Assembly (NCBI GenBank): GCA_000004985.1
Contig: GG738859.1
Reading direction: 5' to 3' (one strand)
Source of the DNA: Naegleria gruberi
Lineage: Eukaryota
DNA length: 64,000 nucleotides
Made by a program: the position numbers and the translations under genes. Under the pieces are notes generated by a model. That model worked only from the letters and a program-made list of their open reading frames with translations. It was not told the origin of the DNA and made no database searches. This document shows positions 7,928 to 44,557 of the stretch, in pieces (positions within the stretch are counted from its first letter, which is position 1; the number at the start of each line of letters is the position of its first letter).

Positions 7928-8851
7928 TTAATAGTAATCTCTACGACATGTTCTTTCAATATTTACAATTCTTCTATCTGAATCATCAACTATTACCTTA
8001 AGGTCTAAGTTGTCCGTATATCCTCCACCAGCATTATAATATGAAGGAAATATATATCCTTCAAGATTTGACAAATAAAGTGGCTCATGTCTATCTGATA
8101 ATTTTACATCATTGACATTCAATACTTCAATTAATTCAAAAGGAGATATCATTGGTGTGAAATTTTCAACATTCAAACCAATATCATATTGAATTACAGT
8201 TTCATGTGGCATTAAATATTGAGATAACTTGGAAAAATTGTCTGCATAATTATCAGCTTTCAAAACACAAGAAAGGAATGTCAATAGAGGTATTTCTGTT
8301 GTCATTTCGATACCTAACCTATTTTCACAAAGCTCAGCTTTCACTTTGTCAATAAATAAATTAGGAGTGTATCCAGAAACTGTCAATGAATCATATACAA
8401 TAGTGATAATGTAATGATCCAATATATCCTCTACATTCAATGGAATTTCCTTTCTAAATTTAAAAGATGCTCTATTTGCTTCTAAAAGCAGAGTATTTGT
8501 ACAATAATAATCTTCTCTATCATCTTCCTGTTTAAAGAATGATTGATAATTATCTGCAATCTCCAAACTATTAACTTCATATGGTTGATCTTTGGCATCA
8601 TTTTGTTTTTTAGGAATTTTCCAAGTAATTTCCAATAATTTAGATAACCAACAACAATTATTATCATTAGTAAGTGTATAATATTGATCAATCCTATAAT
8701 AATCACAATACATCATCTTCCAGAAAACTTGATTGGAATGAACACCTCTCTTCCACACATTATTCACTCTCCTGCACTTAATTATTTCATCTATCGGAAG
8801 GAATGACACAATGTGAGCAACTTCATGTACATGCAACTCGTGTTCGAACAT
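7928..8851 (-). CDS. F-box-like domain protein (307 aa), function unknown
   Basis: N-terminal F-box-like motif (HIVSFLPIDEIIKCRRVNNVWKR). The rest is unrecognised. Divergently paired with the F-box gene at 8926. Confidence 0.45.
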   Translation of the reverse strand: MFEHELHVHEVAHIVSFLPIDEIIKCRRVNNVWKRGVHSNQVFWKMMYCDYYRIDQYYTLTNDNNCCWLSKLLEITWKIPKKQNDAKDQPYEVNSLEIADNYQSFFKQEDDREDYYCTNTLLLEANRASFKFRKEIPLNVEDILDHYIITIVYDSLTVSGYTPNLFIDKVKAELCENRLGIEMTTEIPLLTFLSCVLKADNYADNFSKLSQYLMPHETVIQYDIGLNVENFTPMISPFELIEVLNVNDVKLSDRHEPLYLSNLEGYIFPSYYNAGGGYTDNLDLKVIVDDSDRRIVNIERTCRRDYY

Positions 8852-8925
8852 TTTTTACTTGAAGTTTCAACATGTTTTCAACATGCAAGTAAACTGGCTC
8901 ATTTTGAAAATTCAATTTCAAAAAA

Positions 8926-10524
8926 ATGCACACAGACATTCTGCGAGAGATTTTCATTCATTACATTGGTGATAGCATCTCTGTTTTGCATAATACGAAT
9001 CAATTCATGCTCGTTTGCAAGGATTGGTATGAAGCTACACAATCGGGAAATTTTTGGTCAATCCTGTTGAAAAAGATGATTAAAGAAGAGAAGGAAAATG
9101 TGTTGAAACAACAAGAACATAAAGAAGCAGCACTATTTACATATAGATGTCGCTTTGGAAGGCCAAAGAGATGTTGTTTAAACCATCATCCTAAGAATTA
9201 TTTAAAGTACTTGGAGAGATTGGAGAAAATTCAAGTCAACCAAGAAATTATATACAAGACAATGACAAGAAAATTATTTGAAAAGAGAAAATGGTTTGCC
9301 ATTCAAACCAAGATTGAGAATTTATTAATCCTTAAAGATAGAATTAATGATGATGAGGTGGAAGCTTGGAAAAATATTGTAAATTATATGGAAACGAAAC
9401 CATTTGGTAAAACACCAAAAGAAATTTGCCAATTCAAAATTTACGACAGAACTTTGCTTCAATATTTGTGCATGCATTTTTTTGGATATGATGAACAGAA
9501 ACAACATTTGTTTGACACTCTTGTTGAAAAGTATGAAGCAAACGTTTTGCCATGTTTGCAATATACATATTTTTCACGTGACTTCATTCAAAAGAACTAT
9601 ATTTTGGCTGATATTGAAAAAAGCAAAGGAAAAAGTGTGCCATTTGATATTTTAATCCATGCATTTAACAAGAATTTTTTCTCTAAGGAAAATCTTGATC
9701 AATTAGTTATTTTATTGAAAAAGTATAGACAGAGAGATTTCAGACCTTTATTTATGAAAAGGATATTGCCTCGTCTTTTGGGTGAAATATCTGAAACCTA
9801 CGTTGATTTTGCTAAAAAATTGAACTATCTCATAACCAAATTGAAAGTTTATTTATTGGATAATTTTTCTAGAGACGACATATCTAAGTGTGTGAGTGAT
9901 ATGTTTATAAACAGCAATCACCTTCGTTATTTTAATGATGATTCTCCAAACATTGATAAGGAAATTTATGAGCTTGTAAAAATGGGTTATGGACAGTATT
10001 TGAATTTACTACCTATTCCACTAGTATCATCATCAGATGATACACTCAATCTACTCAAACTTGTTGTTGAGCAGGGTATAGATCTAAAACAATATCCATA
10101 TATAATTCATGAAACATTGATGAGCAAAAGCTATAAAAAAATACCAACCTTGAAATATTTGATTGAGGAGAGGAATATCAAATATATTAGACCACCTAAA
10201 CATGAAAATGACATTCTAAATAGATTTATCTGCCCTTCAGAAGAATATTTGGAAAACATTGAATATCTCTCCTCAAAATTAGGTCTACGATTGACCTGTA
10301 TTGATTCATTTGTTCACTCTCTGAATTCAGATGTTAGGTTTGCCACATTGCAGAAAATAGTTGATCATGTAACTGAGAAATTTAAAATTGATGTTGTTTC
10401 AAATTGCCTCTCAAGAGTTTATTATAGTTGGCAGAATATAGCAGCACGCGAAGATGCTAATTTAGAAACTCAAAAGAAAGTATTGAGATATTTGGAAGCT
10501 AAGTTTCCCAATGCAATAATTTAA
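8926..10524 (+). CDS. F-box-like domain protein (532 aa), function unknown
   Basis: N-terminal DILREIFIHYIGDSISVLHNTNQFMLVCKDWYEATQSGNFW resembles an F-box. 74-bp spacer to the divergent gene at 8851. Confidence 0.4.
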   Translation: MHTDILREIFIHYIGDSISVLHNTNQFMLVCKDWYEATQSGNFWSILLKKMIKEEKENVLKQQEHKEAALFTYRCRFGRPKRCCLNHHPKNYLKYLERLEKIQVNQEIIYKTMTRKLFEKRKWFAIQTKIENLLILKDRINDDEVEAWKNIVNYMETKPFGKTPKEICQFKIYDRTLLQYLCMHFFGYDEQKQHLFDTLVEKYEANVLPCLQYTYFSRDFIQKNYILADIEKSKGKSVPFDILIHAFNKNFFSKENLDQLVILLKKYRQRDFRPLFMKRILPRLLGEISETYVDFAKKLNYLITKLKVYLLDNFSRDDISKCVSDMFINSNHLRYFNDDSPNIDKEIYELVKMGYGQYLNLLPIPLVSSSDDTLNLLKLVVEQGIDLKQYPYIIHETLMSKSYKKIPTLKYLIEERNIKYIRPPKHENDILNRFICPSEEYLENIEYLSSKLGLRLTCIDSFVHSLNSDVRFATLQKIVDHVTEKFKIDVVSNCLSRVYYSWQNIAAREDANLETQKKVLRYLEAKFPNAII

Positions 10525-10579
10525 ATAAATGTAATAGTGGATATTTTCACACTAAGGCTGCAACATATCCTTAATATGT

Positions 10580-10652
10580 TCCCCCTTAGCTCAGTCGGCA
10601 GAGCGTCAGACTGTTAATCTGCAGGTCGGTGGTTCGAGCCCACCAGGGGGAG
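10580..10652 (+). tRNA. tRNA-Asn (anticodon GUU)
   Basis: TCCCCCTTAGCTCAGTCGGCAGAGCGTCAGACTGTTAATCTGCAGGTCGGTGGTTCGAGCCCACCAGGGGGAG: cloverleaf with anticodon loop CTGTTAA, A box TAGCTCAGTCGG and B box GGTTCGAGCC. Closely resembles metazoan tRNA-Asn. Confidence 0.9.
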
Positions 10653-10910
10653 AATGTTTTTTATATTGACATCATCCCAACGGTTTTAACAAAAGAAAGT
10701 AAAGTTATTGTTTAGGGATTCTATTAGGACAGTTCAAATGTGTTTGAATCCTTTCAAATTCTTCAATTCCTCACATACCCGGCTATTTTCCTGAAATTGT
10801 TTTTGTCTTGAATTAATACTATCGAATTGCATGTCAGATAAAAGGAGCATACAAAGCAGAATAGAAAGGAAAGAAGTAATCCATAATGTGGAGCAATAAA
10901 TGTCTGACAT

Positions 10911-13337
10911 TTATTCATATATTTCTCCCATGATGAGAGTGATAAGAGCAGACCAACCAGTGAAAGGATGAGCTCCTTGCCCCTTCCCGGTTTGAGCATT
11001 ATATTGTTCGTAGAGGGTTCTAGATCTTCTCCATTCGTTATATAATGTTTGAATAATGTTGGTTCTGAGAGCATTATAAACTTCACCACATCTTGCTGAT
11101 TTCTGCTTACAATTGTGAAGAGCTCTCAAAGTCAAATAATTCAAATTAATCCAAATAGGGCCTCTCCAGTAATTTTCCTTAGTTCCAAACATTGGGTCAG
11201 TTTGACTCAAAGATGTCAAACCGTGCACGGTCCATAATTTATCTCTAATGATAGTGTCCAAGGCATGTTGAAGAAGTTTTGGTTCTTGTTCAAAGTCAGG
11301 AACATCAAAGAGGAATGGGAAAAGTGAAATATAACCAATGTGAGGTGAAAATTCTGGTCTAGTATCATTGCCAACAGGTTTACCAGCATAGTCACTAAAC
11401 CATTCAATATTCTTATTGTAATGTTGAGTCTTGATATTGGATTTCAAAGTCTTGAGTCTTTCAACTAATACTGGATCGTCCTTCTTGAAAATAATATTAT
11501 TAATCTTGTTCATTGTGTCTGTCATCATGTAAATCCAGCAATACAAATCCAAGTGACGTTCGTCATCACTAGGTTCAACATTACCTCTTGGATAATCATC
11601 AAGACCAGAAGAAAGTGTATGACCAGGAGTTCTACCTCTCCATCTGTATGAGTTTGGAATCTTTCCTTTTTGTGTGGACAAATACCATTCATAATTCTTC
11701 TTCATGTTAGGATAGACTTGATTGAGGAAAGAAACCATAGCTTCTGATTCAGACAATGATGCTACTCTTTGTGTGGCATCCAAATCTAGTTCAATTTGAT
11801 GATTTCTAGCATGATTCTTCAATAACTCCAAAACAGCAAGGAAGAGCATTGGAGGATTGGCGTGAGTATCGTGTTGGACTTGGAATTGTTCTGGAACTCT
11901 TGTTCTGGCTTCTGCTCCAAGAATTTGTTCTCTTGGAATCCATCCAGTACTCTTATCCATAACATTGAACCAATTGTTAATAATATCCTTTGCAATTTGC
12001 TTATTCCACTTTTGAATAAGAAGAGAGTGGAAACCTTCATCCCACAAGAATCCACGAGGGAAGAATGATCTACATGGACAGGCAGTAAACAAGGCATATG
12101 GCTCAATGGTTCTAATTTCTTGAAGATTTCCCTTTTGATGATAAGAATCACCATAATAATATCCAATACCTCCCACAAGATTAGAAAGAGCATACATGGT
12201 CATTTCTTTTTCATCTTCTTTCAAGTTCTTTTCCTTAAGGTTGAAAGTTTCTTGGAACTTTTGTTCAAAGCATGTCTTGAGTTGCTTAATATTGTTATCA
12301 AAGTTGTCGATATGATCTGAACCATGTTGCTTAATTTGGAAGTTGGAGAAAATATCTGGATGTTGCTCATGTGAAAGGAATGCAACATTCAAATCAAATG
12401 GTGCATAGAAAAATTTTTGAATAACAAGGATATTGCTGTCTTCCTCAATAAAGTTTGGCAAAGTGGCAATTGGGATTGGATAGTCTTTTTGTTCTGGCAA
12501 TCCTTTTTGTCTTCTTTCTTGTTGATCTTCAATCATTTGTTGGAAGGATTTTTTCATTTGAGAAGAGAACATTTCCTTAACTTCATCTCCAATTTTCCAC
12601 ACATCACTTGGAGTTCTCTTCACACCATAGAAATAAAAGTTTGCATGTTCATCAACTTGAGATTTTTCATTAGAGGTAAAGTACATGGAAAAATCTCCAA
12701 TGTCACCACTGTTTCCTCTAATAATTACTGGAAGATTGGATGGAAGACCTTGCTTCTTTGAACCTTGGATTCCAGAAATTCTAAATGATCCTTCTCCATC
12801 ATTTTCAAGAGCAATATAGAAACAAACAGACATGGCTTGCTTGGTTTTCATTTGTTTCAATTCCTTTCCAATAAGTCTAACAGTCCAATCACCCCCCTTT
12901 TCATTAACAGAAGGAACAAATGTATTTTCCGAAACATGTTTCATCATTCTAGTTTCGATTTGAAGAGAATTTTCGTGATCTTTGATTGTTTGCATGGCAA
13001 AGTTTTGTCCATCATGTCTATTCCACCCATAGACTACATTATTAAAATCCATATTACTATTGTGTCTCATCTTGTTAACTCCATCCCAAGTATCTGCTCT
13101 GTTCCACATTAATCCTGTAATAACAGACTTTGGATTTCTAGTTTTCATTCCGAATATTACTTGTGGTCGATAGGTTCCCCACTTCATTGTGTGATTGTAG
13201 AGAGTGGTTTGAAAGACTGGATCCGATCGGTGAATACAATTATTAGTTTCCAATTCATTTCCCATGACAATTTGAGAAGTTATCATCAATGTGCTAATAA
13301 AACACAATAACAAAAGTGAATAAAAGAATCTACTCAT
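10911..13337 (-). CDS. MOGS: Mannosyl-oligosaccharide glucosidase (ER glucosidase I, GH63), type II membrane protein
   Basis: Full-length colinear similarity to MOGS/CWH41, including the diagnostic FFPRGFLWDEGFH, HANPP, LDDYPR and the C-terminal (GH)PFTGWS blocks. Probable start is MSRFFYSLLLLCFIS (signal anchor) at 13337; the track ORF extends to 13412. Confidence 0.85.
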   Translation of the reverse strand: MSRFFYSLLLLCFISTLMITSQIVMGNELETNNCIHRSDPVFQTTLYNHTMKWGTYRPQVIFGMKTRNPKSVITGLMWNRADTWDGVNKMRHNSNMDFNNVVYGWNRHDGQNFAMQTIKDHENSLQIETRMMKHVSENTFVPSVNEKGGDWTVRLIGKELKQMKTKQAMSVCFYIALENDGEGSFRISGIQGSKKQGLPSNLPVIIRGNSGDIGDFSMYFTSNEKSQVDEHANFYFYGVKRTPSDVWKIGDEVKEMFSSQMKKSFQQMIEDQQERRQKGLPEQKDYPIPIATLPNFIEEDSNILVIQKFFYAPFDLNVAFLSHEQHPDIFSNFQIKQHGSDHIDNFDNNIKQLKTCFEQKFQETFNLKEKNLKEDEKEMTMYALSNLVGGIGYYYGDSYHQKGNLQEIRTIEPYALFTACPCRSFFPRGFLWDEGFHSLLIQKWNKQIAKDIINNWFNVMDKSTGWIPREQILGAEARTRVPEQFQVQHDTHANPPMLFLAVLELLKNHARNHQIELDLDATQRVASLSESEAMVSFLNQVYPNMKKNYEWYLSTQKGKIPNSYRWRGRTPGHTLSSGLDDYPRGNVEPSDDERHLDLYCWIYMMTDTMNKINNIIFKKDDPVLVERLKTLKSNIKTQHYNKNIEWFSDYAGKPVGNDTRPEFSPHIGYISLFPFLFDVPDFEQEPKLLQHALDTIIRDKLWTVHGLTSLSQTDPMFGTKENYWRGPIWINLNYLTLRALHNCKQKSARCGEVYNALRTNIIQTLYNEWRRSRTLYEQYNAQTGKGQGAHPFTGWSALITLIMGEIYE

Positions 13338-13590
13338 AGGTGGTGAAGATGACACTGAACACGTGTTAAGCTGGTGGTGATTTGCTGTGCCAAGTATCAT
13401 CCGTGTGGTCATTTTTTATTCTTTTGTTACTAGAACCTCTCAAAGCTTTAATAATTCATACTAGTAGTAATGAATAATTTGTTTTATTATCTGTTCTTTG
13501 AATAGTTGATGAATAAATATTCATTGAATACTAATGGGATGAAGACTTGATTGTTGTATGATGATAAGAAAGAATAATAAAAAATTAAAA

Positions 13591-14177
13591 ATGGATCCAC
13601 AACTCTTGAACGCCATTCAAAAAATCAACGCCCAACAAGAAGAAGTCAACAAACTCACTGCTGGTATGTGTTTAAATGTGAAGATTGTTCGGATATATAT
13701 TGTTTTTAATATTGGATTTTATTGGATTTTTAATGGTGATGGAATGATGATACATTTTGTATTACTTTTATTGGTTGGATAAATTTGATGAATGATGTGA
13801 TGATCATGACAATTTAATTATGGATGGAACGGAACAACATTGTAGAGGTTCAAGTAATTTTGGCCAAACAACAATCTCTCTTGGCTCAAAAGAACGAAAA
13901 TGATACTGTCAAGTTAGAATTTGATCTCATCGATGAAACATCAGATGAAGTTGAAGTTTATAAACTCATTGGACCTGTCCTCATCAAACAAGATGCTGCC
14001 GAAGCTAAATCAAACGTTGAAAAACGATTGGAATTTATCAAGAAGGAAGTGGAAAATGCTGATAAAAAGATTGAAGAATCATTAAAAAAGAAGGAAAGTC
14101 TTGAAAAGAGTATGGTTGAAATCTCACAATGGGTACAACAAAGAGTTGCACAAATCCAACAACTCCAAAAGAAATAA
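13591..14177 (+). CDS. PFDN1: Prefoldin subunit 1; join(13591..13663,13846..14177); 182-nt intron (GTATGT...GTAG)
   Basis: Exon 1 (MDPQLLNAIQKINAQQEEVNKLTA) and exon 2 (VQVILAKQQ...LEFDLIDETSDEVEVYKLIGPVLIKQDAAEAKSNVEKRLEFIKKEV...) match the beta-prefoldin PFDN1 coiled-coil/hairpin layout. Phase-1 junction is consistent. Confidence 0.7.
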
Positions 14178-14360
14178 ACACTTATTTATTATCAAATAAC
14201 CGTAAATATTAATAATTTGATAATTAAAACTCATTTATTAATAATCAAGATGAAATACATGTGAAGTCAATTTATTGCTTAATTGACCAACTAAATAATA
14301 ATGTAAAATAATAGAGTCGAGAAATAATAATTTTGTTTTCTTATTTCCTCACCAAATAAA

Positions 14361-15011: not shown

Positions 15012-15136
15012 TAAATTAAAGAATTTATGAAATCATTTTCGAACTGGAATAAACCAAGTTGACTGATGTAATCTTACAAATGGCAGAAAATGAGAAAAAT
15101 TCGTGCTTGCTCGTCGGCCAATTAAAGAAAACTAAA

Positions 15137-16270: not shown

Positions 16271-16322
16271 GTTTTATTATTAGTATTTCAGAAGATTCGA
16301 ATTTCAATAAGAGATAATTCCA

Positions 16323-18209
16323 TTACCGTTCTTTGTGAGGATTCTGTTGTACATAGCTTTCAAATAATTGTAAAATATCATCCTTATACTGATAATCAAC
16401 ATGAACGTTAATATAGTCAAGAGCTGATACTCCATGAATTTGTGTATGAACATTTGGTTTTCTAGCCAATAACTTTGTCAAAACCCTCATTAACTTTTCC
16501 TTGTTTTGAATGGTGTCATAAACCACAGCACTTATAATTCTTTGGAGTGGACTCGAACCAACAATATCTGACATTTGGTCATCAAATAATTCATCATCTA
16601 TTCTATCAATGAAATATTCTATGGTATCCAATAATTGTTCACCACTATCAAAAGATGCATTAAGGTATTGATAAATGAGAGGTATCTTATTGGGAATCTT
16701 GTTTGGTAATTTAAACCCCCTTACATCACAAAAATATTTTACAAAATCAAGGTTTCTACTAGTTGCAAACAGGTATATGATATCATCAGTAATCATACAC
16801 CTGTTTTGTGTCTTTTCGTAGAGCTCGAAAATATGAATAACATTTTCAACGGTAAGGTGATGTTTTCGAAATGAAACAAACGGATTTGGGCTCATGAAAA
16901 TGTCATCAAGATTATTTTGGCATTTCTCAATTAAATTCACTCCTTCTTTAGTGAACCTCCAATCTGAGACTGCCTTTTCAAATAATTCTAAAGAAAATTG
17001 TAATCTAAATGCATAGTTAGCATGTTCAATTAACGAGAAAGCAATCACATCTTCATCACATTTGAATGTAAAGCTGTTTTTCTTTTTCTCTTCTGATACA
17101 AAAGAAGGAAATAATTGATTAAAGCAGTTCAGGTAGTACATTATTTCATCAACAGGGTATGATTTGTCCAAAAAAACACTCATGACCTTCATTCCAAAGA
17201 TCAATATTTCCTTGTGATTTAGGTAGGGATTTGTAACTTGTTGTTCATTTTCTGCTTTTTTACAATCCTCCACCAGAAAATCCAAAATTCCTTTCACCAA
17301 TTCAAAATCCATAGTTTCAACAGCAACTTGTAAACAGTAGTAACCATTGATAGGATATTTAAATCTCTTTCCACTAGTAAGTATTCTAACTGGTTCAATA
17401 ATTTGTCTATTCAAATTCCAAAACTCTTTCACGGATTCTTCTATTGATGGGTTAATTTGCCGCACTAATTTGCATTTAATGAAAGAATAATCTTTCGAGA
17501 ATGAATCAGCAAATTTTCCTGAAAATCCTTTTTGTAATAAATATCTTTGATCCATATAAATCTCATCTCCACAGTCAGGTTTTAAATTATTCTCCACAAA
17601 TTCTATTAGATTATTCCACTTTTCAGTTATTGGCACAATAACTTCTGCTAAATTAGAATGAGAATTTGATTGTGGAGCTACTGTTCGATCCATTAAATTT
17701 GTCAATTTTTCAGTATTCCGCCCAAGCAAGAATGCCTTAACCTCCTTCTTGAAAATTGAATAAAATCTAAAGCCTGTAAAGAAATTTACATCCTCATATC
17801 CCTCCTCCGATTTACAAACTTTTTCTCTGTGATATAATTTTTCAGCTTCATCAACATGACTCCTTCTCAAATCATTTAATTTTTTAATTTTCCCCTTGGT
17901 TTTACTTTTCATCAGGGCTTTTGCATCATTTTCTAATTTCTCCTCTTCAAATTCTATCCGATCTTGTAAAAAGAATGAAAATCTCATTCTCCACAAAGCC
18001 TCATATCTAGCCACTCCGAGCCAATGTCTATTGAGCAGTAATAAATTAGCAACATCCCTCGTCTTGGAACACATTAGAAAAATACTGAAAATTAAATCCT
18101 CCTGCAATTCATTCATTTTTTTTCGATAATTATTACAAAATCGACTTGATGGAAATACTGAATATTGGATCATCCAATTTTCTAATAAGAAGATTAATCT
18201 TAATGACAA
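16323..18209 (-). CDS. F-box-like domain protein (up to 628 aa), function unknown
   Basis: F-box-like segment LQEDLIFSIFLMCSKTRDVANLLLLNRHWLGVARYEALW near the N-terminus. True start may be the internal Met (MNELQ...). Confidence 0.4.
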   Translation of the reverse strand: MSLRLIFLLENWMIQYSVFPSSRFCNNYRKKMNELQEDLIFSIFLMCSKTRDVANLLLLNRHWLGVARYEALWRMRFSFFLQDRIEFEEEKLENDAKALMKSKTKGKIKKLNDLRRSHVDEAEKLYHREKVCKSEEGYEDVNFFTGFRFYSIFKKEVKAFLLGRNTEKLTNLMDRTVAPQSNSHSNLAEVIVPITEKWNNLIEFVENNLKPDCGDEIYMDQRYLLQKGFSGKFADSFSKDYSFIKCKLVRQINPSIEESVKEFWNLNRQIIEPVRILTSGKRFKYPINGYYCLQVAVETMDFELVKGILDFLVEDCKKAENEQQVTNPYLNHKEILIFGMKVMSVFLDKSYPVDEIMYYLNCFNQLFPSFVSEEKKKNSFTFKCDEDVIAFSLIEHANYAFRLQFSLELFEKAVSDWRFTKEGVNLIEKCQNNLDDIFMSPNPFVSFRKHHLTVENVIHIFELYEKTQNRCMITDDIIYLFATSRNLDFVKYFCDVRGFKLPNKIPNKIPLIYQYLNASFDSGEQLLDTIEYFIDRIDDELFDDQMSDIVGSSPLQRIISAVVYDTIQNKEKLMRVLTKLLARKPNVHTQIHGVSALDYINVHVDYQYKDDILQLFESYVQQNPHKER

Positions 18210-18404
18210 ACTTTTATCAGAGTGTTCTCTAGGTACCTCATAAAGGCTTGACTAAATTTTCCATAACGGAACCTTAAAAGTACAAAAATGCGGCGATTGA
18301 CTTAACTTCGATCAAAAAGCTGAGTGTACGTAAAGAGAGGCTTAAAAAAGCTTTTTAAAATTAAAAAAAATTTGCAAACTCTAATTACTCCTATCCTATA
18401 CAAA

Positions 18405-19394
18405 ATGACTAAACCAACAATGAAGGTCCTCGTCACTGGTGCTGCAGGTCAAATCTGTTACTCTCTCATTGGTATGATTGCTAGTGGTCAAATGCTCGGT
18501 TTCGATCAACCAATCATTCTCCACTTGCTCGAAGTCCCAGTTGCCATGGACGCTTTGAAGGGTGTTTGTATGGAAATTACCGATTCTGCTTATCCATTGG
18601 TTAAGAAGGTTGTTGCTACCTCTGATTACCAAGAAGCTTTCACTGATATTGATGTTTGTATCATGGTTGGTGCTATGCCAAGAAAGGACGGTATGGAAAG
18701 AAAGGATTTGTTGGAAAAGAATGCTTCCATCTTCAAGGGACAAGGTGAAGCTTTGGAAAAGTATAGCAAGAAGTCTGTTAAAGTTCTCGTTGTTGGTAAT
18801 CCAGCCAACACTAACTGTCTTATTGCTAAGACTTATGCACCATCTATTCCAGCTGAAAACTTCTCTGCTCTCACTCGTTTGGATCATAACAGAGCTAAGG
18901 CTCAAGTTGCTGATCGTCTCGGTGTCAATGTTTCCGATGTTCACAATGTCACTATTTGGGGTAACCACTCTTCCACTCAATATCCAGATGTTTCTCACGG
19001 ATATGTCACAATTAATGGTGAAAAGAAGTCTATCACTGAAGCTGTCAATGATGATGCTTGGTTGAAGGGTGATTTCATTAGCACTGTTCAAAAGAGAGGT
19101 GCTGCTGTCATTGCTGCTAGAAAATTGTCTTCTGCCACATCTGCTGCTAAGGCTATTGTCGATCACGTCCATGATTGGGTTTTGGGTACTCCAGAAGGTG
19201 AATGGGTTTCTATGGCTATTCCATCCGATGGTTCTTACGGTATTCCAGAAGGTGTTATTTATTCATTCCCAGTTACTTGCAAGGATGGTGTTGTCACTAT
19301 TGTTCAAGGTTTGAAGATTGATGATTTCTCCAGAAACAAGATGGAAGTTACCGATAAGGAATTGAGAGAAGAAAAGCAATTGGCTTTGAACTAA
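18405..19394 (+). CDS. MDH1: Cytosolic NAD-dependent malate dehydrogenase (MDH1 type), intronless
   Basis: [16 protein letters not shown] Rossmann motif, catalytic [12 protein letters not shown] and full-length colinearity with cytosolic MDH. Strongly biased codon usage suggests high expression. Confidence 0.9.
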
Positions 19395-19978: not shown

Positions 19979-20072
19979 TTTTTATTTAAATAATTAATAA
20001 TTTGTACCCAGAAATGGAAAGTGCACAACAATTTACATTGAAAATTAATCTTTATTGATGTTATTGAAACAC

Positions 20073-21788
20073 TCAATGATTACTGTATTTTACATTTCCT
20101 TTTTTCAAATCAATCACTACAACAGTGTCCATAGCTGCTGTTTGAGTGATAAGAAATAACTCTCCATTACTTCTTACCTCTCCAAATACAGATTCTGATT
20201 CTCTATTTAAATTCATAGGTCCATTACCAGCTCGGTTGAGTGATACAAAGTGTTCACGACTTGGTTTCAAAACTATATTTTCTTTGTAAACTAATGAACC
20301 ATCATCTAGTCTGACTCGTTCTAAACGAGATTTCAAATAGGAAGGATCGATGTGAATAAACATTAAATCAAATAGATATCTCCTGTCTAGTTCATCAAGA
20401 GGAGTGTTGTCTCTTCTTTCTGACCTTCTCTTTCTAATAGTTACGCCATCAAGGGGAATCCACAAATATTTTGTTTCGAAAAAACCAGAATAAGATTGAA
20501 ACTCAAGATTTCTGCTCCACTTTTCAGTACAGTCCATTGAGATTAGCACATTGTCTGCTTTTCTATGTTGATATTTGAATTCTAGTAAGCAAACTCTATT
20601 GAGTGTATAGAGTATCACATTAGTTAACATGGTAACATGTTGGTCATTGTCATTTTGTTGCTCCACTGAAAGAGTAGCCATTTGTAAAATAATATCCTCA
20701 TAGAAATACATTAATATTCGTCCAGTCAAGGCATGAATGAGAATGTAACACTGGTTTTCATCTTCATCCATTGGTTGTAACAGGAAATTTCCAGAGACAA
20801 CATCCATCAAGCGCATTGGAATGTTCACTCCTGGAATACCCTTCACCTTATTAAATAGATTTCTAATATCAATACTCCACAATTTTTGTCCATTCTCAAT
20901 ATTCCAAGCATGGAATGTTTTAAATTCACTGCAAAATGTATCCACAATTCCGAATTCATTATTTACAGCATCGTTGAGATGAATTTTCTTGTTGGGGCCA
21001 TCTTCATTCTCCCAAACGAGACTTCCATTCGAACAATCCAGGACCTTGATTCCAGATGTGTTGATACCCATTAACACATAATTCTTTCTTGGGTAGTGAT
21101 AAATATTGGTACAATTGACTAACCTAGTCAAATAATTTTTCTTTTCTTTTTCAAATCTAAGCAGCGGTTCCAATCGAATCGACCAAACTTGATTTCCAAA
21201 CAAATCAAAATATTCTACAGTTTCATGTTTTACAATAATTCCTCCCATTTTCTTTGCGATTTGAGATTCTTCCAATCCTTTTTCTCCTCTCAATACCTTA
21301 TCCATATTTTCATTAGTAATATTTACAGAAATGTACAAATCAATATCATAAGTTAAGTTATCAAAACTATTATTCGGATGAAAAAAATGATAGCCATAAT
21401 ATCCACCCTCCTTATATTGTGCAGGAATATCAGAGAGACAGTAGGCACTCTTTTTCATCAGTGGAAAAGAACATAACTTGTATGAACCATTTCCATTCCG
21501 AATCATTTCAACAACACTCCCCCTAATTAGAAATTTCCTATAATTCAATCTCCTACTCAATTCTTTAAATAAATCCAACCAGGTAACTTTTTCAGTGATC
21601 AAACTTTTCCATTCTCTCCTAGCCTCTTCTCCATAATAATCAACGAAATAATTCATCCACAGAAAATCATTCGTATCTATCAATTGATGCCAACTCCGAC
21701 AACATGTAGAGATGTAGTTGAGGAGAAAATGTGGAGGAAGCATTGAAAAAATTGTCAACAATATTTCCTCTGGTACATTTTCAAACAT
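20073..21788 (-). CDS. F-box domain protein (~571 aa from the internal Met; ORF extends to 21863)
   Basis: Classic F-box at the N-terminus (MFENVPEEILLTIFSMLPPHFLLNYISTCCRSWHQLIDTNDFLW). Remainder unrecognised; possible beta-propeller. Confidence 0.5.
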   Translation of the reverse strand: MFENVPEEILLTIFSMLPPHFLLNYISTCCRSWHQLIDTNDFLWMNYFVDYYGEEARREWKSLITEKVTWLDLFKELSRRLNYRKFLIRGSVVEMIRNGNGSYKLCSFPLMKKSAYCLSDIPAQYKEGGYYGYHFFHPNNSFDNLTYDIDLYISVNITNENMDKVLRGEKGLEESQIAKKMGGIIVKHETVEYFDLFGNQVWSIRLEPLLRFEKEKKNYLTRLVNCTNIYHYPRKNYVLMGINTSGIKVLDCSNGSLVWENEDGPNKKIHLNDAVNNEFGIVDTFCSEFKTFHAWNIENGQKLWSIDIRNLFNKVKGIPGVNIPMRLMDVVSGNFLLQPMDEDENQCYILIHALTGRILMYFYEDIILQMATLSVEQQNDNDQHVTMLTNVILYTLNRVCLLEFKYQHRKADNVLISMDCTEKWSRNLEFQSYSGFFETKYLWIPLDGVTIRKRRSERRDNTPLDELDRRYLFDLMFIHIDPSYLKSRLERVRLDDGSLVYKENIVLKPSREHFVSLNRAGNGPMNLNRESESVFGEVRSNGELFLITQTAAMDTVVVIDLKKGNVKYSNH

Positions 21789-35895: not shown

Positions 35896-35928
35896 ATTTG
35901 AATAACATAACTTTCATTTATTAGATAA

Positions 35929-37497: not shown

Positions 37498-37532
37498 TCA
37501 TTTCATCTTTGAGATTAATTCATAGATTAATT

Positions 37533-38096: not shown

Positions 38097-38409
38097 TTTT
38101 TTAAAATTGGAAAAATCAAATAATTTGATATCGATATTTCTTTTTAATTGTTGTTATTATTATTAAATACTAATATTGGTTTACTTATTTTAATCAACTT
38201 GATTGTTGATATGGCTATCTTGAATTTGAGGTAACGCTTATTGGAATAGTGTGAAAAACCACAACATTGAATTGGATGGCATATTTTTTGAGTCAAGACG
38301 AGATTTAATGGCTTTGCACCCCTATCGTTTTATAATATAGTATAGTGTGTTTGATTTTAATCTTCCCGCCAAAATACAGTACTGAATTTGAAAAACAACT
38401 ACAAAAATA

Positions 38410-39786
38410 ATGGCTGAACATGATAGCAGTTTGATGGAGGATAGCTCAATGTTGGATCCCGAGAGCACTTCCAATATTAATGATTATTCAAATATGAGAT
38501 CATCTTTTGAGGAGGGATCCTATGCTGAGGAAGATCCTCTTGCACAAGATGGAAGAGTTATGGAAGAGGAAGATGACGAATTAACTGATGACGATGATTC
38601 TGAAGAAAGACATGAAGGAGAATTTACATCAGAGACACAAGGAAATAGTACACTGAATATATCTACAGAATTTGAAACAATTGATGAGGATGCTCACTAT
38701 GTTGATGAGGAAGATTCGGAGGATGATGAGGACTTGGACGACCCTCGAGCAAGAGAGGCCAGATTACTGTACCTTAAAAAACAAAAGTACATTGAAAAGT
38801 ATGCAGATGAATTGAAAAAAAGAGAGACAATCTATTCAAAACACAGAAAAGCTCAAAAAAGATTGGCTGAAATATTTAGAGTAACAAAAGGAGCAGAAAG
38901 GTTTGCTAACACTGCTCCTTCTTCGGAAGTCGAAGAAAGATATGCAAAGTATGTGGCAGAACATAAGGAATTAAGAGATGAAATGGAAGAATTGAGGCGA
39001 AAAAATGCTGTTCAGCTGAATGAGATGAGAATAAGATTGGAGGAAAGAGAAACCAATGCATCTGAATTACAAAACTCTTTTAGAGAATTCAAAAGAAGCA
39101 TGGCTCTTAGTGCTGTAGATAGTAGAACTGGTAAGAAAATTCCATCAAACTCAATAGAACAGTACATAGACAGAGACAGACAAAAGGATGACATGATAAG
39201 AGAAATCAGAACAACCTTTATTGAACTGAAAAATACAAAAGACTCTTTAGAAAAGCTCATAAAGAGTAGAGAAGAATTCTCAGAAGGTCTTCACTTGATG
39301 GACTATGAACAACTGAAAATGGAAAACTCAACCCTAATGGAAAAGTTGAGAGAAAAGAGAGACAACCTTAAGAAATCAAGAGAAAAACAAACTACAACTG
39401 TCCACATTTTAACTCACGTTAAAGAAAAATTACAATATGTACAGACTGAAAATTCAGAATTGCAAAAGAAGTTGGACAAACTAAACATCAACCTTACCGA
39501 GTATAAAGACATGCTTACTAGAATCAAAAAGGAGCGAGACATGTTAAAAAAACAAAACATGGAAATGAGAGAAAAGGAGCCTCTAGTTGGAACTGACTCT
39601 TTACTCCTTGACTATCAAAGTAGAAAGGACGAACTAGATATGTTAAAAGATCAAGTTATGGAGCTGAAGAATACCTATAACAGACTGATACTGAAAACAA
39701 AGAGTTACAACAAACAAACAGAAGCATTTGAAAAGAGAAATGCTCCAAAAGTCACAACCTATACTCTTCCAGATATTCACAAATAA
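38410..39786 (+). CDS. Coiled-coil protein with acidic N-terminus (possibly CCDC96/CCDC113-like, cilium/centrosome-associated; speculative)
   Basis: Acidic D/E-rich head followed by ~300 aa of heptad-rich K/E/R/L sequence. No enzymatic motifs. Confidence 0.4.
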   Translation: MAEHDSSLMEDSSMLDPESTSNINDYSNMRSSFEEGSYAEEDPLAQDGRVMEEEDDELTDDDDSEERHEGEFTSETQGNSTLNISTEFETIDEDAHYVDEEDSEDDEDLDDPRAREARLLYLKKQKYIEKYADELKKRETIYSKHRKAQKRLAEIFRVTKGAERFANTAPSSEVEERYAKYVAEHKELRDEMEELRRKNAVQLNEMRIRLEERETNASELQNSFREFKRSMALSAVDSRTGKKIPSNSIEQYIDRDRQKDDMIREIRTTFIELKNTKDSLEKLIKSREEFSEGLHLMDYEQLKMENSTLMEKLREKRDNLKKSREKQTTTVHILTHVKEKLQYVQTENSELQKKLDKLNINLTEYKDMLTRIKKERDMLKKQNMEMREKEPLVGTDSLLLDYQSRKDELDMLKDQVMELKNTYNRLILKTKSYNKQTEAFEKRNAPKVTTYTLPDIHK

Positions 39787-39927
39787 TAAATTTATAAATA
39801 ATTCTCATCATTTCTTGTCACGTTGCAAATATATTTGCTCTCAGGCGATTCTCAACCATGTTACTGTACCAACCATTTTGTTATTCGGAGAGTGGATCGA
39901 TATTTTATGCTTTTCCAAGACAAAAAA

Positions 39928-42683
39928 ATGAGTGTAAGCGCAGAGTGGGTCCAACTCGGAAAGGGTAAGAAGGGAGTACCAGTGTACTACCGAAAGAAAG
40001 AAATATACACTATGGAATGGGGAGATGATAATATTAATCTCTCCGAATGTCTGATCGCTGCTGCAAATTTTGGTGGACCTATTGGTAGGTGTAAAATTTT
40101 TATTATTTAATATTTAACGATTTTTTCAAAATATTACCATCGTCATCATAATTAAAAAACTCTCTGCAGCTCTCACAAGGGATCCTAAAAAGTTATTAAG
40201 ATTTAGAGGAACTGATTCAAAACAATATGTACATGTATTTTCAAGTTCAGGAAAAAGAATTTCAAAATTTGAGGTAGGTTATTTAGTTTGAGTTTTTTGA
40301 GATCAATTTTATAAGTGGAATACACAATTAAACAAATCACTCCTTTATATGGGATGGACACAAGAGGAATCCTTGATTTGTGTAACAGAGTAAGTGGCTC
40401 CTGAACTTATGAAATTTAAACCTGTATAAATAGTGAGGCTCACGTATTCATTTTCGATATTTTTGGAAAACAATTACAACAATTCCCATTCCCAGAGGAA
40501 GTTAAAAGTGCTGGAATTTTAAAAGTTAAACATTGGGAAACTGGTATTGCTATTCTTACAAGAGATTTTAATGTTTGGGTAATTTCGGATTTGGAATTTA
40601 TTGATTGTCAACAATTAGCTTCTCTAGGTAGGTAAAACATTTCAAATTTGTATGTGATAGATTTTTAATAGATGTTCCACTTGAATTCAATGATGAAAAG
40701 GAAATTGGAATGTGTATCTTACAACCAAATATTGCAACAAGTGGAGATTTGGAAGTAATTATCAGTGTACCTCAAGCAAGAACTGTTTATGTTGTAACTT
40801 CTGAGGAATGTAATAATTTAGGACTCGATAATGGTCCATTTCCTAAAATTTGTGCCTCTCCTTCCGGAGAAGCTTTAGCCACCTTTAATGAATCTGGATC
40901 ATTGTGGGTTGTTAAATCCGATTTTACTGAAAACCATGCAGAATTTGATACAAGATCATCAAGTACACCATCACAAGTAGCTTGGTGCGGTGAGGATAGT
41001 GTTTGTTTATATTGGGAACCTGAACAAGTTAATAATAGAGAAGGAAATGTATCTTTACTTTTAATGATTGGACCAAATGGTGACTATAGCACATTCACCT
41101 ATGATAGTCCAATTCACCTTGTGACAGAAATTGATGGTGTCAGAGTTATTACCAATGATTCCTGTGAATTTTTGCAAAGAGTACCAGAAGCAAACTTTGA
41201 TATTTTCAAAATTGGTTCTCTTACTCCATCAGCCATGCTCTATGATGCCTACATTGAATTTGAAAAGAAGAATGCCTCATCAATCAATAATATTAGATCT
41301 ATTAAGAATTCGCTAAGAGGAGCCGTTAATGCTTGTCTTGAGGCTGCTGCAAATGAATTTGATACATCCCTTCAAAAATCCCTTTTACGTGCTGCTTCAT
41401 ATGGTAAATCCTTTTGTGATGAATTTGAACATTCCGAGTTTGTTAATACTTGTAAAATTCTTAGAGTTATGAATGCTGTCAGAGATTCGAATATTGGTAT
41501 TCCAATCACTTTGGATCAATACAAGAGATTAACACCAAAAGTTTTAATAGATAGACTTGTGAATAGAATGCAACATTTGGTAGCCTATAGAATTTGTACC
41601 TACCTCAAGATCAAACCAAACAATGTACTTGTTCACTGGGCTTGTTCCAAAGTACTGTCTAATGAAGATGATCATGTAATATTGGATTCCATTGATAAGA
41701 AGCTTTCTGAATGTGAAGGTGTTCCATTTTCTACTGTAGCTTCAACTGCCTACAGTGTAGGTAAGAAGAACTTAGCTATTCAACTCTTGGAAAGAGAAGA
41801 AAGAGCTAGCGAACAAGTTCCACTCCTTTTAAATATGAATGAAACTAAGAATGCTCTCAGAAAAGCCATTATCAGTGGTGAAACTGATCTTGTCTATTTG
41901 GTACTTCTTCACATGAAGAAAAACATGGAAGTATCAAGCTTCTTCTCTGTAATTAATGAAAAGGGATTCAGAGTTGCTAGAAATCTTCTAGTAACATATT
42001 GTAAGGAGAGAGATATTGATTTCCTTAAAATTTTCTTCCATGCTTTGGATAAACAAGAGGAAGCAGCTGCTATGAATGTATTTGAATCATTCTCATTTGA
42101 AGGGGAACCAGCAGCTCACAAGAAGCTCCTACTCCAAGCTAAAGAACTCTATAATAAGAAGAAGGATTACCAATTGGACAGTAAACTTTGTGAAGAACAA
42201 GTTAAATTGCTCCAAATGCAAAGAGAGTTTGATAACGCATTGGGAAGACAATTATTTACAGGACTTTCTGTTAGTGAAACTATCTATCAATGTCTCCTTA
42301 ATGGTAACAAACAAGCAAAGAAAGTCAAGAAGGAATTCCAAGTTTCTGATAAAAAGTTTTGGTGGTTAAAGATTGCTGCCTTCTCCAAGTTGGGCAAGTG
42401 GAATAAGATGGAAAAATTCTCCAAGAAAAAGTCACCAATAGGATACAGACCTTTTGTTGAGGCATGCTTACAACAAAAGAATACAGTAGAAGCCCACAAG
42501 TACATTCCAAAAGTAACAGATCCATGGGAAAAGATTGAACTTTATGTAGAATTATTGTCTTTCAAGGAAGCCATCGAAACTGCTTTCGCACACAAGAATA
42601 CTGACATGCTTAGATGGATTAGAACCAAGACAAACCACTCTCAAACCAAGTTAACAATTGATGATTTACTTTCTAAACTCTAA
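39928..42683 (+). CDS. VPS16: Vacuolar protein sorting 16 (HOPS/CORVET core subunit), 846 aa; join(39928..40084,40170..40273,40316..40389,40434..40627,40672..42683); introns 85, 42, 44 and 44 nt
   Basis: N-terminal exons reproduce human VPS16 (MSVSAEW..YYRKKEIYTMEW..CLIAAANFGGPIA; LTRDPKK..; WNTQLNKSLLYMGWTQEESLICVTE; GIAILTRDFNVWV). Exon 5 has the Vps16_C region (LAIQLLEREERASEQVPLLLNMNETKNALRKAIISGETDLVYLVLLHMK; KKFWWLKIAAFSKLGKWNKMEKFSKKKSPIGYRPFVEACL). All junctions are GTAGGT/GTAAGT...AG, phases verified. Confidence 0.85.
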
Positions 42684-44557
42684 ATAAACCTATTTCCATA
42701 AAAAGGTTGATAAATAGCTAACTTGAATCCATATTTCAAACCACATTCTGTCAACAGTTCTGTATCTAATTGGCTACCGTTTCCATACAAAATTAACCTT
42801 TCCAAATTAACCAAGACTGTTGCAAGTTTGATAAATTCTTCATTTGATACCATACCCAATGCTAATGTTGTTAGATTCTTCAGCCCAATTACTTGTTCAA
42901 ACACATCAGTACAGCTGGTTTGTGAAATGTATAATTCTCTTAGTTTCTTGAATTGTTTCAAGTTTTTGATATAATTTAAATTATTCAAATTGGACATAGT
43001 AAGGGTATTTAACTTTTCCAATTTTTCCAATCCATCAATAGTTTCCACCTTTGTATTCGAAATATATAATTCTTGTAAGTTTATCAAATCTGAGAGTGAA
43101 CTAATGTTTGCAAAATTGTTATTAGCCAAACGTAAATCCTTCAATTTTGTCAAATGTTTTATCTCATCAATGTTATCTATTAGGTTTGATGACAATGCCA
43201 ATGTCTCTAAATTTTCTAATCTACATAAAAAACGAAATCCCATAGTTCCTATTTGGTTTCGTGATAAGTTTAAAACTCTTAATTGTTTTAATTTGGAGAT
43301 TGAATGGACAACCGTGTCAGTTAGTTTAGAGTCTTGTATGACTAGTTGAGTTAGTTTTGTTAGACTACTTAGTCCTTCCAAGTCAATTAAATTACATGAA
43401 AAACAATTAAGTGAATTCAAATTTTGTGGTAATTTACATTCAATCTCGAAATGTGTAATATTTAAATCTTGCAATTTATCTAAACTATTTAAATATCGAT
43501 AATCCATAGTTGTCAGATTATACAAGCGAATATTTAATTTCTTTAAATTAATTAAACTTGCAAAGAAATCAAAATTACAATTTCTAATATCTAATTCAGT
43601 TAGATTTGTTAGTTGAGATAAACTATTAAAATTAGCCACTTGATACTTGTACAATTGGTTGATATCAAGCTTTTTTAATTGTTTAATTTTGGAAATTAGT
43701 TCAACTTCTTTAAGCTCAGCCATTGTGTCAATCATAATTAATTCTGCTAATTTTGGTAACTTTGCAATGTACTTGATACTACTTTTATCAACAGAAGTCC
43801 AAGATAAATTTAAATGTTCTAACAATTTTAATTTCAAAATATCCTCCTTAATTTCATCAATATTTTTACAAGTTTCCAAATTTAAATGGACCAAGCTACT
43901 GAGATTATTACATATTAATTTGAGTTCTTCATTCCCTATTAGAGAATTAGCCAATTTCAACCTCTTAATATTTTTAAATTTGAATATAACTTTTAAATGT
44001 CCAATTTCAAATTTAGATTGAAAAGTTGGAACATTAATTTGTTTACTTATTAAATTAATATATTTAGTAGCAATTAATTTCCATTTCTTTGATAAGGCCA
44101 TTAACTTGAAAATAAGCTCCTGATTCAAATGTATCAATATATGATGAATAATAATATCAGTTGATAATTTTTCAATTCTAATTCTTGGTAACTTGTACGA
44201 TTGTTGTTTAATAAGATTAACCAAGTTTAAATTGGTAGGTGATTTCTTATCACTGGTCGATTTTTTAGTTCGGATGCCACTTCTGCTAGGAGAGGAAGTA
44301 GTACTCTTGCTTTTGGTGGTAGACAATAAACTCGATGAGGATTTGTTCAATAATTTAGACTTTGATGTTGTTGTAGTGGTTAGAGTAGTTTTTGTTATTG
44401 TTGTAGAGGTTGTACTTCCAATTGAGGAGGACCTGGCCCTCAAAGGAGTAGTGGCACGAGATGTCCCACCACCAGTAGTATCAGTTTTCTTGCTTGTAGA
44501 TGGGGTCCTATTCCGAGTGGTGATATTAGTACTTCTTGATGGTGAGGAGCTAAACAT
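42680..44557 (-). CDS. F-box/LRR-repeat protein (FBXL type) with Ser/Thr-rich N-terminal region
   Basis: F-box (LSTDIIIHHILIHLNQELIFKLMALSKKWKLIA) followed by >15 leucine-rich repeats (LxxLxLxxN/C pattern). Its stop codon overlaps the VPS16 stop. Confidence 0.6.
   Translation of the reverse strand: MFSSSPSRSTNITTRNRTPSTSKKTDTTGGGTSRATTPLRARSSSIGSTTSTTITKTTLTTTTTSKSKLLNKSSSSLLSTTKSKSTTSSPSRSGIRTKKSTSDKKSPTNLNLVNLIKQQSYKLPRIRIEKLSTDIIIHHILIHLNQELIFKLMALSKKWKLIATKYINLISKQINVPTFQSKFEIGHLKVIFKFKNIKRLKLANSLIGNEELKLICNNLSSLVHLNLETCKNIDEIKEDILKLKLLEHLNLSWTSVDKSSIKYIAKLPKLAELIMIDTMAELKEVELISKIKQLKKLDINQLYKYQVANFNSLSQLTNLTELDIRNCNFDFFASLINLKKLNIRLYNLTTMDYRYLNSLDKLQDLNITHFEIECKLPQNLNSLNCFSCNLIDLEGLSSLTKLTQLVIQDSKLTDTVVHSISKLKQLRVLNLSRNQIGTMGFRFLCRLENLETLALSSNLIDNIDEIKHLTKLKDLRLANNNFANISSLSDLINLQELYISNTKVETIDGLEKLEKLNTLTMSNLNNLNYIKNLKQFKKLRELYISQTSCTDVFEQVIGLKNLTTLALGMVSNEEFIKLATVLVNLERLILYGNGSQLDTELLTECGLKYGFKLAIYQPFYGNRFI
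42683..42688 (+). promoter_or_regulatory. AATAAA polyadenylation signal overlapping the VPS16 stop codon (TAAATAAA)
   Basis: Hexamer directly visible; it lies inside the 3' end of the convergent F-box/LRR CDS. Confidence 0.3.

Follow-up and report, generated by a model that had tools for sequence, protein, structure and literature searches.

Five probable F-box genes, mutually unrelated beyond the F-box, within 36.6 kb of the Naegleria gruberi genome

In SCF ubiquitin ligases, F-box proteins are the components that select the proteins to be degraded. In the FBXL class (Skp2, FBXL2, KDM2A/KDM2B), the F-box directly precedes FBXL-type LRRs; the FBXW class (beta-TrCP, Fbxw7/Cdc4) joins a canonical F-box to a C-terminal beta-propeller; and FBXO proteins carry an N-terminal F-box ahead of a C-terminal region in which no interaction domain is classified. 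In plants (FBA, FBD, Kelch) and nematodes (FTH/DUF38, FBA2), lineage-specific expansions comprise numerous rapidly evolving F-box genes whose C-terminal regions are confined to the lineage, mostly in tandem arrays of recognisable paralogs that have one C-terminal domain in common. For Naegleria gruberi, diversification of both F-box and BTB proteins has already been published (PMC4327156, supplementary text).

Here we analysed a 64-kb stretch of N. gruberi nuclear DNA (the window), in which a first-pass annotation had placed five F-box genes, F1 to F5, among housekeeping genes. All five open reading frames are present where they had been placed, and housekeeping genes do sit between them; the one correction concerns F3, whose reading frame (16323-18209) exists as described but whose annotated protein begins with the ATG at 18116 rather than with the TTG at 18209. 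The 36.6 kb spanned by the five holds 22 genes, five of them F-box genes, versus none among the 16 remaining genes of the window, and the unrelated genes in between occur on both strands. The same 64 kb also carries two BTB genes, one HECT gene and one RING gene.

To establish the identity of the five proteins, each sequence was searched singly against the Pfam F-box and F-box-like models (PF00646 and PF12937), for which the curated gathering cut-offs are 20.5 and 24.3 bits, the latter being that of F-box-like. F4 alone exceeded a curated cut-off, and did so with both models (F-box-like, 38.6 bits, E 9e-10; F-box, 27.4 bits). F1 (17.8 bits, E 0.0028), F2 (13.5 bits, E 0.071), F3 (12.6 bits, E 0.12) and F5 (11.5 bits, E 0.31) all fell below. 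Four of the five thus miss the curated threshold on their own sequence, which is formally the outcome that the first-pass annotation had named as speaking against its proposal. By Pfam alone only F4 stands, whereas homologs and profiles support all five.

Such scores invite the reading that fewer than five are true F-box proteins and that the weak ones, above all F1, F2 and F5, have Leu/Ile-rich N-terminal helices plus a Trp that mimic an F-box, leaving no notable cluster. The sub-threshold range (11.5-17.8 bits) fits this, as do a leave-one-out profile of the other proteins that recognised neither F2 nor F3, N-terminal profiles of the F1 and F3 families that found no F-box in the PDB, a comparison of F1 with F3 by hhalign that was not significant, and AlphaFold2 (AF2) models of F1 and F2 whose low-confidence N-termini gave no usable F-box. 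The library-wide E-values nevertheless imply per-model p-values of ~1e-7 to 1e-5. For each of F1-F4 no Pfam family scores higher than the F-box; in F5 it is the weakest listed Pfam match, yet the sole one outside the LRRs. Its position is canonical throughout, at the N-terminus in F1-F4 and immediately ahead of the LRRs in F5, with a separate putative interaction region downstream. None of 20 other open reading frames of the window matched an F-box in Pfam at E<=0.5, nor did any of 14 further ones, screened at E<=0.001 only, and a local F-box profile run against all 340 six-frame open reading frames of the window found nothing beyond the five.

Family-level comparisons point in the same direction. 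The leave-one-out profile recognised F1, F4 and F5, and a profile built from F1, F2, F3 and F5, with F4 left out, retrieved 14 PDB chains, all of them F-box proteins (best E 0.038). Homologs lift the Pfam scores, to 27 bits for F3 and 22 bits for F2; the F2 family matches beta-TrCP, and F5 aligns in register with FBXL2. UniProt itself names F3, P0004 and P0008 F-box proteins. We therefore consider it unlikely that fewer than five are genuine: the F-box identity of F1, F2, F3 and F5 is rescued by homologs and profiles, orthogonal support being least for F1 and own-sequence evidence weakest for F2. Judged from sequence comparison, the five are very probably F-box proteins of the SCF-adaptor type.

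F5 (42680..44557, minus strand; 625 aa with a Ser/Thr-rich N-terminus) is the only one of the five in which an F-box is followed by LRRs, the arrangement that defines the FBXL class. Its F-box lies at aa 131-166 (nt 44060-44167) and the LRRs at about aa 190-600 (nt 42758-43990; LRR_4, E 2e-23, plus other LRR families). Searched against the PDB, aa ~95-300 returned KDM2B/FBXL10 (E 0.0067), FBXL2 (E 0.013) and Skp2 at the top. The alignment to FBXL2 runs in register from the F-box into the LRRs, with LS opposite LP where the F-box begins, and the leave-one-out profile recognised F5 at E 0.0015. These alignments identify F5 as a predicted FBXL-type F-box/LRR protein. F5 departs from members of that class in a long N-terminal extension rich in Ser/Thr, in its total of about 17 LRRs and in its F-box, which scores 11.5 bits in Pfam and lacks the terminal LW; the likeness is to the class and does not amount to orthology with a named FBXL. 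The F5 stop codon overlaps the end of a convergent Vps16 gene by 4 bp.

F4 (20073..21788, minus strand; 571 aa from the ATG) carries its above-cut-off F-box at aa 5-48 (nt 21645-21776), and its PDB matches are exclusively F-box chains. Farther along, three stretches match PQQ_2 (22.9 bits, E 7.5e-5, below the cut-off of 27.6), the best at aa 231-307 (nt 20868-21098). The protein also matches the Pfam EMC1 beta-propeller and contains repeated 'D/N-x-x-x-G-x-x-[LV]-W' motifs, so that its C-terminal part resembles a beta-propeller of the PQQ type. A canonical F-box with C-terminal propeller matches recalls the FBXW class; the propeller signal of F4, at 22.9 against 27.6 bits, is however PQQ/BamB-like, not WD40. 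WD40 was matched by none of the five in Pfam, which leaves the FBXW class, as so defined, without a member here. The claim that the non-F-box parts contain no known substrate-recognition domain accordingly holds for F1-F3, but F4 departs from it with its sub-cut-off PQQ_2 match. A metagenome scan yielded no relatives of F4. F4 (beta-propeller-like) and F5 (LRR) are both conventional receptor architectures.

Like FBXO proteins, F1, F2 and F3 join an N-terminal F-box to a C-terminal region that has no classified interaction domain; they differ from FBXO proteins in general in that these regions match no Pfam family. F1 (NAEGRDRAFT_65699; D2VA10, 'predicted protein'; 7928..8851, minus strand, 307 aa) has an F-box-like motif at aa 6-48 (nt 8708-8836), to which the plain F-box model also responds below its cut-off (E 0.02); its paralog P0006, on another N. 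gruberi scaffold, gives E 0.016. The other four families, combined into a leave-one-out profile, recognised F1 at E 1.3e-5. P0006 was the sole relative returned by the homolog search. The C-terminal ~250 aa gave no Pfam match and no known domain, and the AF2 model, computed from a two-sequence alignment, was unusable (pLDDT 31).

F2 (NAEGRDRAFT_65700, D2VA11; 8926..10524, plus strand, 532 aa as an open reading frame) has its F-box-like motif at aa 2-48 (nt 8929-9069). The public model comprises aa 113-532 only, starting at nt 9262, and the first 112 residues, F-box included, appear to be missing from it. Two homologs were found among 1.84 billion representative proteins. P0008 from N. lovaniensis, annotated by UniProt as F-box domain-containing, aligns to F2 from residue 4, and its F-box scores 22.1 bits (E 1.3e-4). 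The F2-family profile matched the beta-TrCP F-box in the PDB at E 0.0018, followed by the ankyrin repeats of FEM1C and RNase L at insignificant values (E 0.1-0.5). An AF2 model built from three sequences was of mediocre confidence (pLDDT 54.6) and all alpha, and a Foldseek search of it against the PDB gave alpha-solenoid matches only, none significant. The part of F2 beyond the F-box is thus predicted by this model to be all-helical.

F3 (NAEGRDRAFT_65705; D2VA16, 'F-box domain-containing protein' in UniProt; 16323..18116, minus strand, 597 aa from the ATG) carries its F-box at aa 4-46 (nt 17979-18107). Its relatives consist of one paralog and one N. lovaniensis homolog (28-31% identity). The paralog (P0003/P0010), located on another scaffold, is 48-50% identical to F3, and its F-box begins with a canonical LPEDL and scores 27 bits, above the 24.3-bit cut-off. 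The C-terminal ~500 aa of F3 returned no Pfam match and no known domain.

Outside the F-box, the five proteins are not paralogs of one another. All-vs-all BLASTP found no significant similarity among their C-terminal parts, bearing out the first-pass annotation on this point, and the hhalign alignment of the F2 and F3 family profiles is confined to the F-box region (E 0.0056). Homology of F2 and F3 beyond the F-box, suggested by eye from a helical region and a charged linker in each, was likewise rejected by hhalign. The idea of a lineage-specific family survives in part: F1, F2 and F3 each belong to a small family restricted to Naegleria-like organisms, whereas the five do not form one family beyond the F-box.

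The comparison with nematode and plant expansions fares less well. Many fast-evolving genes with lineage-restricted C-terminal regions are a common trait, and the Naegleria F-box families do evolve fast, N. lovaniensis homologs being 28-31% identical to their N. gruberi counterparts. Those expansions, however, consist mostly of tandem arrays of recognisable paralogs, while here five neighbours are unrelated; no pair is similar outside the F-box, and none of the C-terminal Pfam domains of the plant and nematode families (FBA, FBD, FTH, Kelch) occurs in the five. F1 and F3 have their nearest relatives on other scaffolds, so the locus is not a tandem array of the nematode or plant kind. An ancient local tandem duplication whose remnants have diverged past recognition outside the F-box would accord with the F-box common to five closely spaced genes and with this fast evolution. 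It is hard to reconcile with architectures of different kinds (LRR, beta-propeller-like, all-alpha), with similarity that is absent even from profile to profile, with F1 and F3 paralogs that remain recognisable on other scaffolds, and with the non-F-box genes between the five; we regard it as extremely improbable.

F1 and F2 are arranged head to head, and the 74-bp spacer described for them (8852..8925, start codon to start codon) is real, as read directly from the sequence. It contains an 11-bp tandem direct repeat, (G/T)TTTCAACATG in two copies at about 8864-8885. Of the window's 11 divergent spacers it is the shortest, followed by one of 169 bp. The spacer, together with the uneven distribution of F-box genes over the window, could be taken as the mark of a non-random, possibly co-regulated SCF adaptor cluster, in which one bidirectional promoter would serve F1 and F2, for example during the amoeba-to-flagellate change or stress. 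Short spacers are nonetheless common across the window (median 237 bp over all spacers), and between the five lie unrelated housekeeping genes, on both strands.

Nor is the arrangement conserved. The F2 and F3 homologs of N. lovaniensis lie in different neighbourhoods, where the 10 kb to each side are free of other F-box genes, and a WD40 gene stands upstream of the F2 homolog in place of an F1 relative. A conserved F1/F2 pair was also rejected at the locus L003, where neither the divergent neighbour of the F2 homolog nor a second F-box-like gene is related to F1. A high background of such genes is suggested by the two BTB, HECT and RING genes of the window and by an unrelated 7.3-kb contig of a Naegleria relative, which carries two dissimilar F-box-like genes 1.1 kb apart. 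Another locus, L004, added no independent baseline, since it nearly duplicates the L002 region in the same order and may be a second haplotype.

Whether gene density could produce such a grouping was approached by a scenario calculation. With at most about 300 F-box genes genome-wide, ~0.05 clusters of five in 36.6 kb would be expected, which would argue against a reading of the locus as mere density; such a cluster becomes probable by chance only if the genome holds at least about 500-800 F-box genes, a dependence that lends the co-regulated cluster some support. The literature searched describes the diversification in N. gruberi qualitatively and gives no number of F-box genes. Only three of the 11 Naegleria-type F-box sequences scanned, two of these three being near-identical, reached the Pfam cut-off, and published Pfam-based counts are therefore probably too low. 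Weighing these points, we find a co-regulated cluster very unlikely.

A broader proposal joins two elements. The 64 kb may form a non-random degradation-adaptor neighbourhood, in which five mutually unrelated SCF-adaptor genes lie with the two BTB, HECT and RING genes under shared regulation that includes the 74-bp bidirectional F1/F2 promoter; and/or Pfam-based counts may fall several-fold short of the true Naegleria F-box repertoire, given that most Naegleria F-boxes would lie below curated thresholds. We hold this proposal, too, to be quite unlikely.

Collectively, the evidence favours five independent F-box genes whose co-location stems from a large and divergent repertoire, much of it below Pfam thresholds, rather than from a functional cluster, a reading to which we assign a probability of roughly 0.6. 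Since the five are unrelated outside the F-box, the region is most likely no more than a typical slice of a gene family whose expansion in N. gruberi is already known, with nothing special about the cluster as such.

By homology, the five proteins would serve as substrate receptors of SCF (Skp1-Cul1-F-box) ubiquitin ligases. The ~45-residue F-box of each would dock onto Skp1, and the differing C-terminal modules would bind substrates for ubiquitylation. On this scheme F5 would represent the FBXL class, F4 a PQQ-like propeller analogous to FBXW, and F1, F2 and F3 the 'F-box only/other' class.

The practical value of the locus is limited: it reveals no new kind of system, its architectures being those of the standard FBXL, propeller and 'other' classes. 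For the annotation of N. gruberi, NAEGRDRAFT_65699 and 65700, currently 'predicted proteins', can be re-annotated as probable F-box proteins. With four of the five local F-boxes below the Pfam threshold, surveys based on domain counts probably underestimate the SCF adaptors of heterolobosean organisms.

The five candidate F-box genes, F1 to F5, lie in a window (G+C ~33%) where long ORFs are tightly packed and mostly without introns. All five ORFs reported in the first-pass annotation are present: F1 at 7928-8851 (-), F2 at 8926-10524 (+), F3 at 16323-18116 (-), F4 at 20073-21788 (-) and F5 at 42680-44557 (-). The F3 frame opens with TTG at 18209, and the annotated protein begins at ATG 18116. 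F1, F2 and F3 are 100% identical at the protein level to NAEGRDRAFT_65699 (D2VA10), NAEGRDRAFT_65700 (D2VA11) and NAEGRDRAFT_65705 (D2VA16), respectively, N. gruberi entries located on a 530,355-bp scaffold. The intervening genes are indeed ordinary eukaryotic housekeeping genes, encoding GH63 glucosidase I, prefoldin, exosome Csl4, a nucleoside hydrolase, malate dehydrogenase, a Cmc1/CHCH protein, TTI1, an EF-hand protein, a thioredoxin-domain protein, a CCDC113/96 ciliary protein and Vps16.

Gene 3′ ends in the window are very compact: Vps16 (+, end 42683) and F5 (-, end 42680) converge with stop codons overlapping by 4 bp (42680-42683), and further convergent gaps measure just 7 and 33 bp. 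A 258-aa ORF (18396-19172, -) antisense inside the malate dehydrogenase gene (18324-19394, +) is most likely a codon-bias by-product rather than a gene. Two adjacent ORFs at 4404-6316 (-) jointly encode a BTB domain and an Arf-family GTPase, with Arf profile positions 4-62 in ORF 4811-6316 and positions 74-170 in ORF 4404-4775; this split suggests a short intron, and the joined ORFs would constitute a BTB-Arf fusion. Three ubiquitin-ligase-related genes neighbor one another at 47812-52630: a gene with a HECT domain (47812-49068, +), which probably represents the final exon of a larger gene; a RING peroxin of the Pex2/Pex12 type (49137-50474, -); and a protein combining BTB_2 (KCTD-type) with SPRY (51524-52630, -). 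The ORF at 53201-54229 (+) is a divergent tubulin-family gene whose similarity to the tubulin GTPase domain is confined to the C-terminal portion (profile positions 89-188), with a weak Tubulin_C match; its 5′ exon is probably separate.

Pfam searches of the single sequences placed only F4 above the curated cut-offs, at 38.6 bits for F-box-like and 27.4 bits for F-box. F1 (17.8 bits, E 0.0028), F2 (13.5 bits, E 0.071), F3 (12.6 bits, E 0.12) and F5 (11.5 bits, E 0.31) fell below them, so that, taken literally, most of the five (4/5) have no significant F-box match in HMMER, an outcome that the first-pass annotation had named as contradicting its claim. These E-values relate to a library of 24,736 models and thus correspond to per-model p-values of roughly 1e-7 to 1e-5. 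Either F-box or F-box-like tops the Pfam ranking of F1-F4, and it is the sole match of F5 outside its leucine-rich repeats (LRRs); the match always occupies the position expected of an F-box, at the extreme N-terminus in F1-F4 and directly before the LRRs in F5. Among 20 other window ORFs scanned at E<=0.5, none had an F-box match (another 14, which have clear domains of other kinds, were scanned at E<=0.001 only), and a local profile of Naegleria F-boxes retrieved no additional candidates from all 340 six-frame window ORFs.

Family-level comparisons provided further evidence. The F3 paralog NAEGRDRAFT_47209, on another N. gruberi scaffold (48-50% identity), begins with MNQLPEDLIF and exceeds the F-box-like cut-off at 27 bits; F3 itself is named an F-box domain-containing protein in UniProt. 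When 1.84 billion representative proteins were scanned in full with HMMER, only two F2 homologs emerged, a metagenome protein and N. lovaniensis C9374_013756, which UniProt calls an F-box protein (F-box-like, 22.1 bits, E 1.3e-4) and whose alignment starts at F2 residue 4. The three-sequence F2-family profile matched the beta-TrCP F-box in the PDB (E 0.0018), with TIR1, FBXW11 and FBXO42 next in rank. For the F5 segment that spans the putative F-box and first LRRs, the best PDB matches were KDM2B/FBXL10, FBXL2 and Skp2; FBXL2 aligns in register, with the F5 'LS' opposite the 'LP' that opens the F-box.

Leave-one-out profiles, from which each protein and its homologs were removed, detected F1 (E 1.3e-5), F4 (0.0029) and F5 (0.0015) and missed F2 and F3. 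A profile of F1, F2, F3 and F5 without F4 retrieved 14 PDB chains, all from F-box proteins (best E 0.038), and the F2-family and F3-family profiles aligned to each other solely across the F-box (E 0.0056). Profiles built separately from the F1-family and F3-family N-termini found no F-box in the PDB, hhalign of F1 against F3 was not significant, and AF2 structure prediction gave no confident N-terminal structure. The assignment is secure for F3 and F4 and probable for F2 and F5; F1, judged from sequence statistics, is also a probable F-box protein.

Beyond the F-box, the proteins are mutually dissimilar, as initially proposed: all-against-all BLASTP yielded no significant similarity, and the F2-family and F3-family profiles shared nothing further. 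The proposal that these regions match no known substrate-recognition domain holds in Pfam for F1, F2 and F3 (zero matches) but not fully for F4, which has a sub-threshold PQQ_2/BamB beta-propeller match in three stretches (22.9 bits, E 7.5e-5), a second, weaker match to the EMC1-propeller, and recurring D/N-x-x-x-G-x-x-[LV]-W motifs typical of propeller blades. F4 probably carries a propeller receptor domain, a known class, and F5 has strong LRRs. AF2 predicts F2 to be entirely helical, reaching moderate confidence only at residues ~360-500, and the model resembles generic alpha-solenoids without any significant structural neighbor; ankyrin matches of the F2-family profile (FEM1C, RNase L; E 0.1-0.5) offer no more than a hint of ankyrin likeness.

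The head-to-head spacer between F1 and F2 measures 74 bp (8852-8925), as first described, given an F2 start at nt 8926. The public F2 model (XP_002678970, 420 aa) begins at Met113 (nt 9262), which would leave 410 bp. Support for the longer ORF comes from the 112 additional in-frame codons (8926-9261, +) absent from the NAEGRDRAFT_65700 model, which are open, carry the F-box motif and are conserved in the N. lovaniensis homolog, whose alignment begins at residue 4; the public model is probably 5′-truncated. The 74-bp spacer is the shortest of 11 divergent spacers (next, 169 bp) in a window where spacers are generally short (median, 237 bp; several <70 bp), and neither of the two related loci examined preserves the pairing. 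Within it, a two-copy tandem direct repeat, (G/T)TTTCAACATG, occupies 8864-8885, each copy containing an upstream ATG on the + strand.

F1-F5 are not mutual paralogs. The recognizable relatives of F1 (43-45% identity) and F3 in N. gruberi lie on other scaffolds. The arrangement of F1-F5 differs from the tandem arrays of the nematode and plant expansions with which the first-pass annotation compared it. Lineage specificity and rapid divergence are supported for F1-F3, whose homologs were found in Naegleria-like organisms alone (28-50% identity); a metagenome scan found no F4 relatives. In N. lovaniensis, the F3 homolog and the F2 homolog with its near-duplicate sit amid unrelated genes, with no extra F-box gene within 10 kb on either side. 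The two F2-homolog loci (PYSW02000075.1 and PYSW02000063.1) are near-identical copies with the same gene order, representing haplotigs or else a recent segmental duplication; the latter contig has an added DDE_Tnp_4 transposase gene at 5286-6817. On a 7.3-kb metagenome contig from a Naegleria relative, the F2 homolog (2861-4624, +) follows, by 1.1 kb, a second F-box-like gene (937-1779, +; Pfam E 0.0027) that encodes 280 aa and is related to neither F1 nor F2 beyond the motif. Such a pair hints at a high density of F-box genes, or a tendency to adjoin each other, in the Naegleria lineage.

Whether five such genes in 36.6 kb are remarkable depends on the genome-wide total, for which we found no count in the literature for N. 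gruberi. In scenario calculations, five would be remarkable with up to ~300 F-box genes, when only ~0.05 such clusters would be expected; with at least ~500-800, five would be expected by chance. Just 3/11 Naegleria-type F-box sequences scanned reach the Pfam cut-off (two of them near-identical), which, together with the two mutually unrelated genes on the independent metagenome contig, suggests that the effective number under the looser first-pass criterion is well above Pfam-based counts. The E3-related genes elsewhere in the window (two BTB, one HECT and one Pex-type RING) are consistent with a genome that is E3-rich overall. Given sparse Pfam detection, the metagenome pair and the E3-rich window, we infer that the co-location of F1-F5 most likely reflects chance in a dense F-box repertoire. 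F-box diversification in N. gruberi is described in the supplement of Grau-Bove et al. (PMC4327156), so the expansion was already known.

What the analysis shows directly is the motifs and architectures of F1-F5. By homology, each protein would bind Skp1 through a three-helix F-box, and its C-terminal module (LRRs in F5, a probable propeller in F4, lineage-specific regions in F1-F3) would present putative substrates to Cul1-Rbx1-E2 for ubiquitylation, following the established SCF paradigm of the Skp2, beta-TrCP and FBXL2 structures. Collectively, F1-F5 are real but ordinary, unrelated members of a known family already reported as expanded, and their analysis, as by-products, newly annotates two probable F-box proteins and corrects one gene model.
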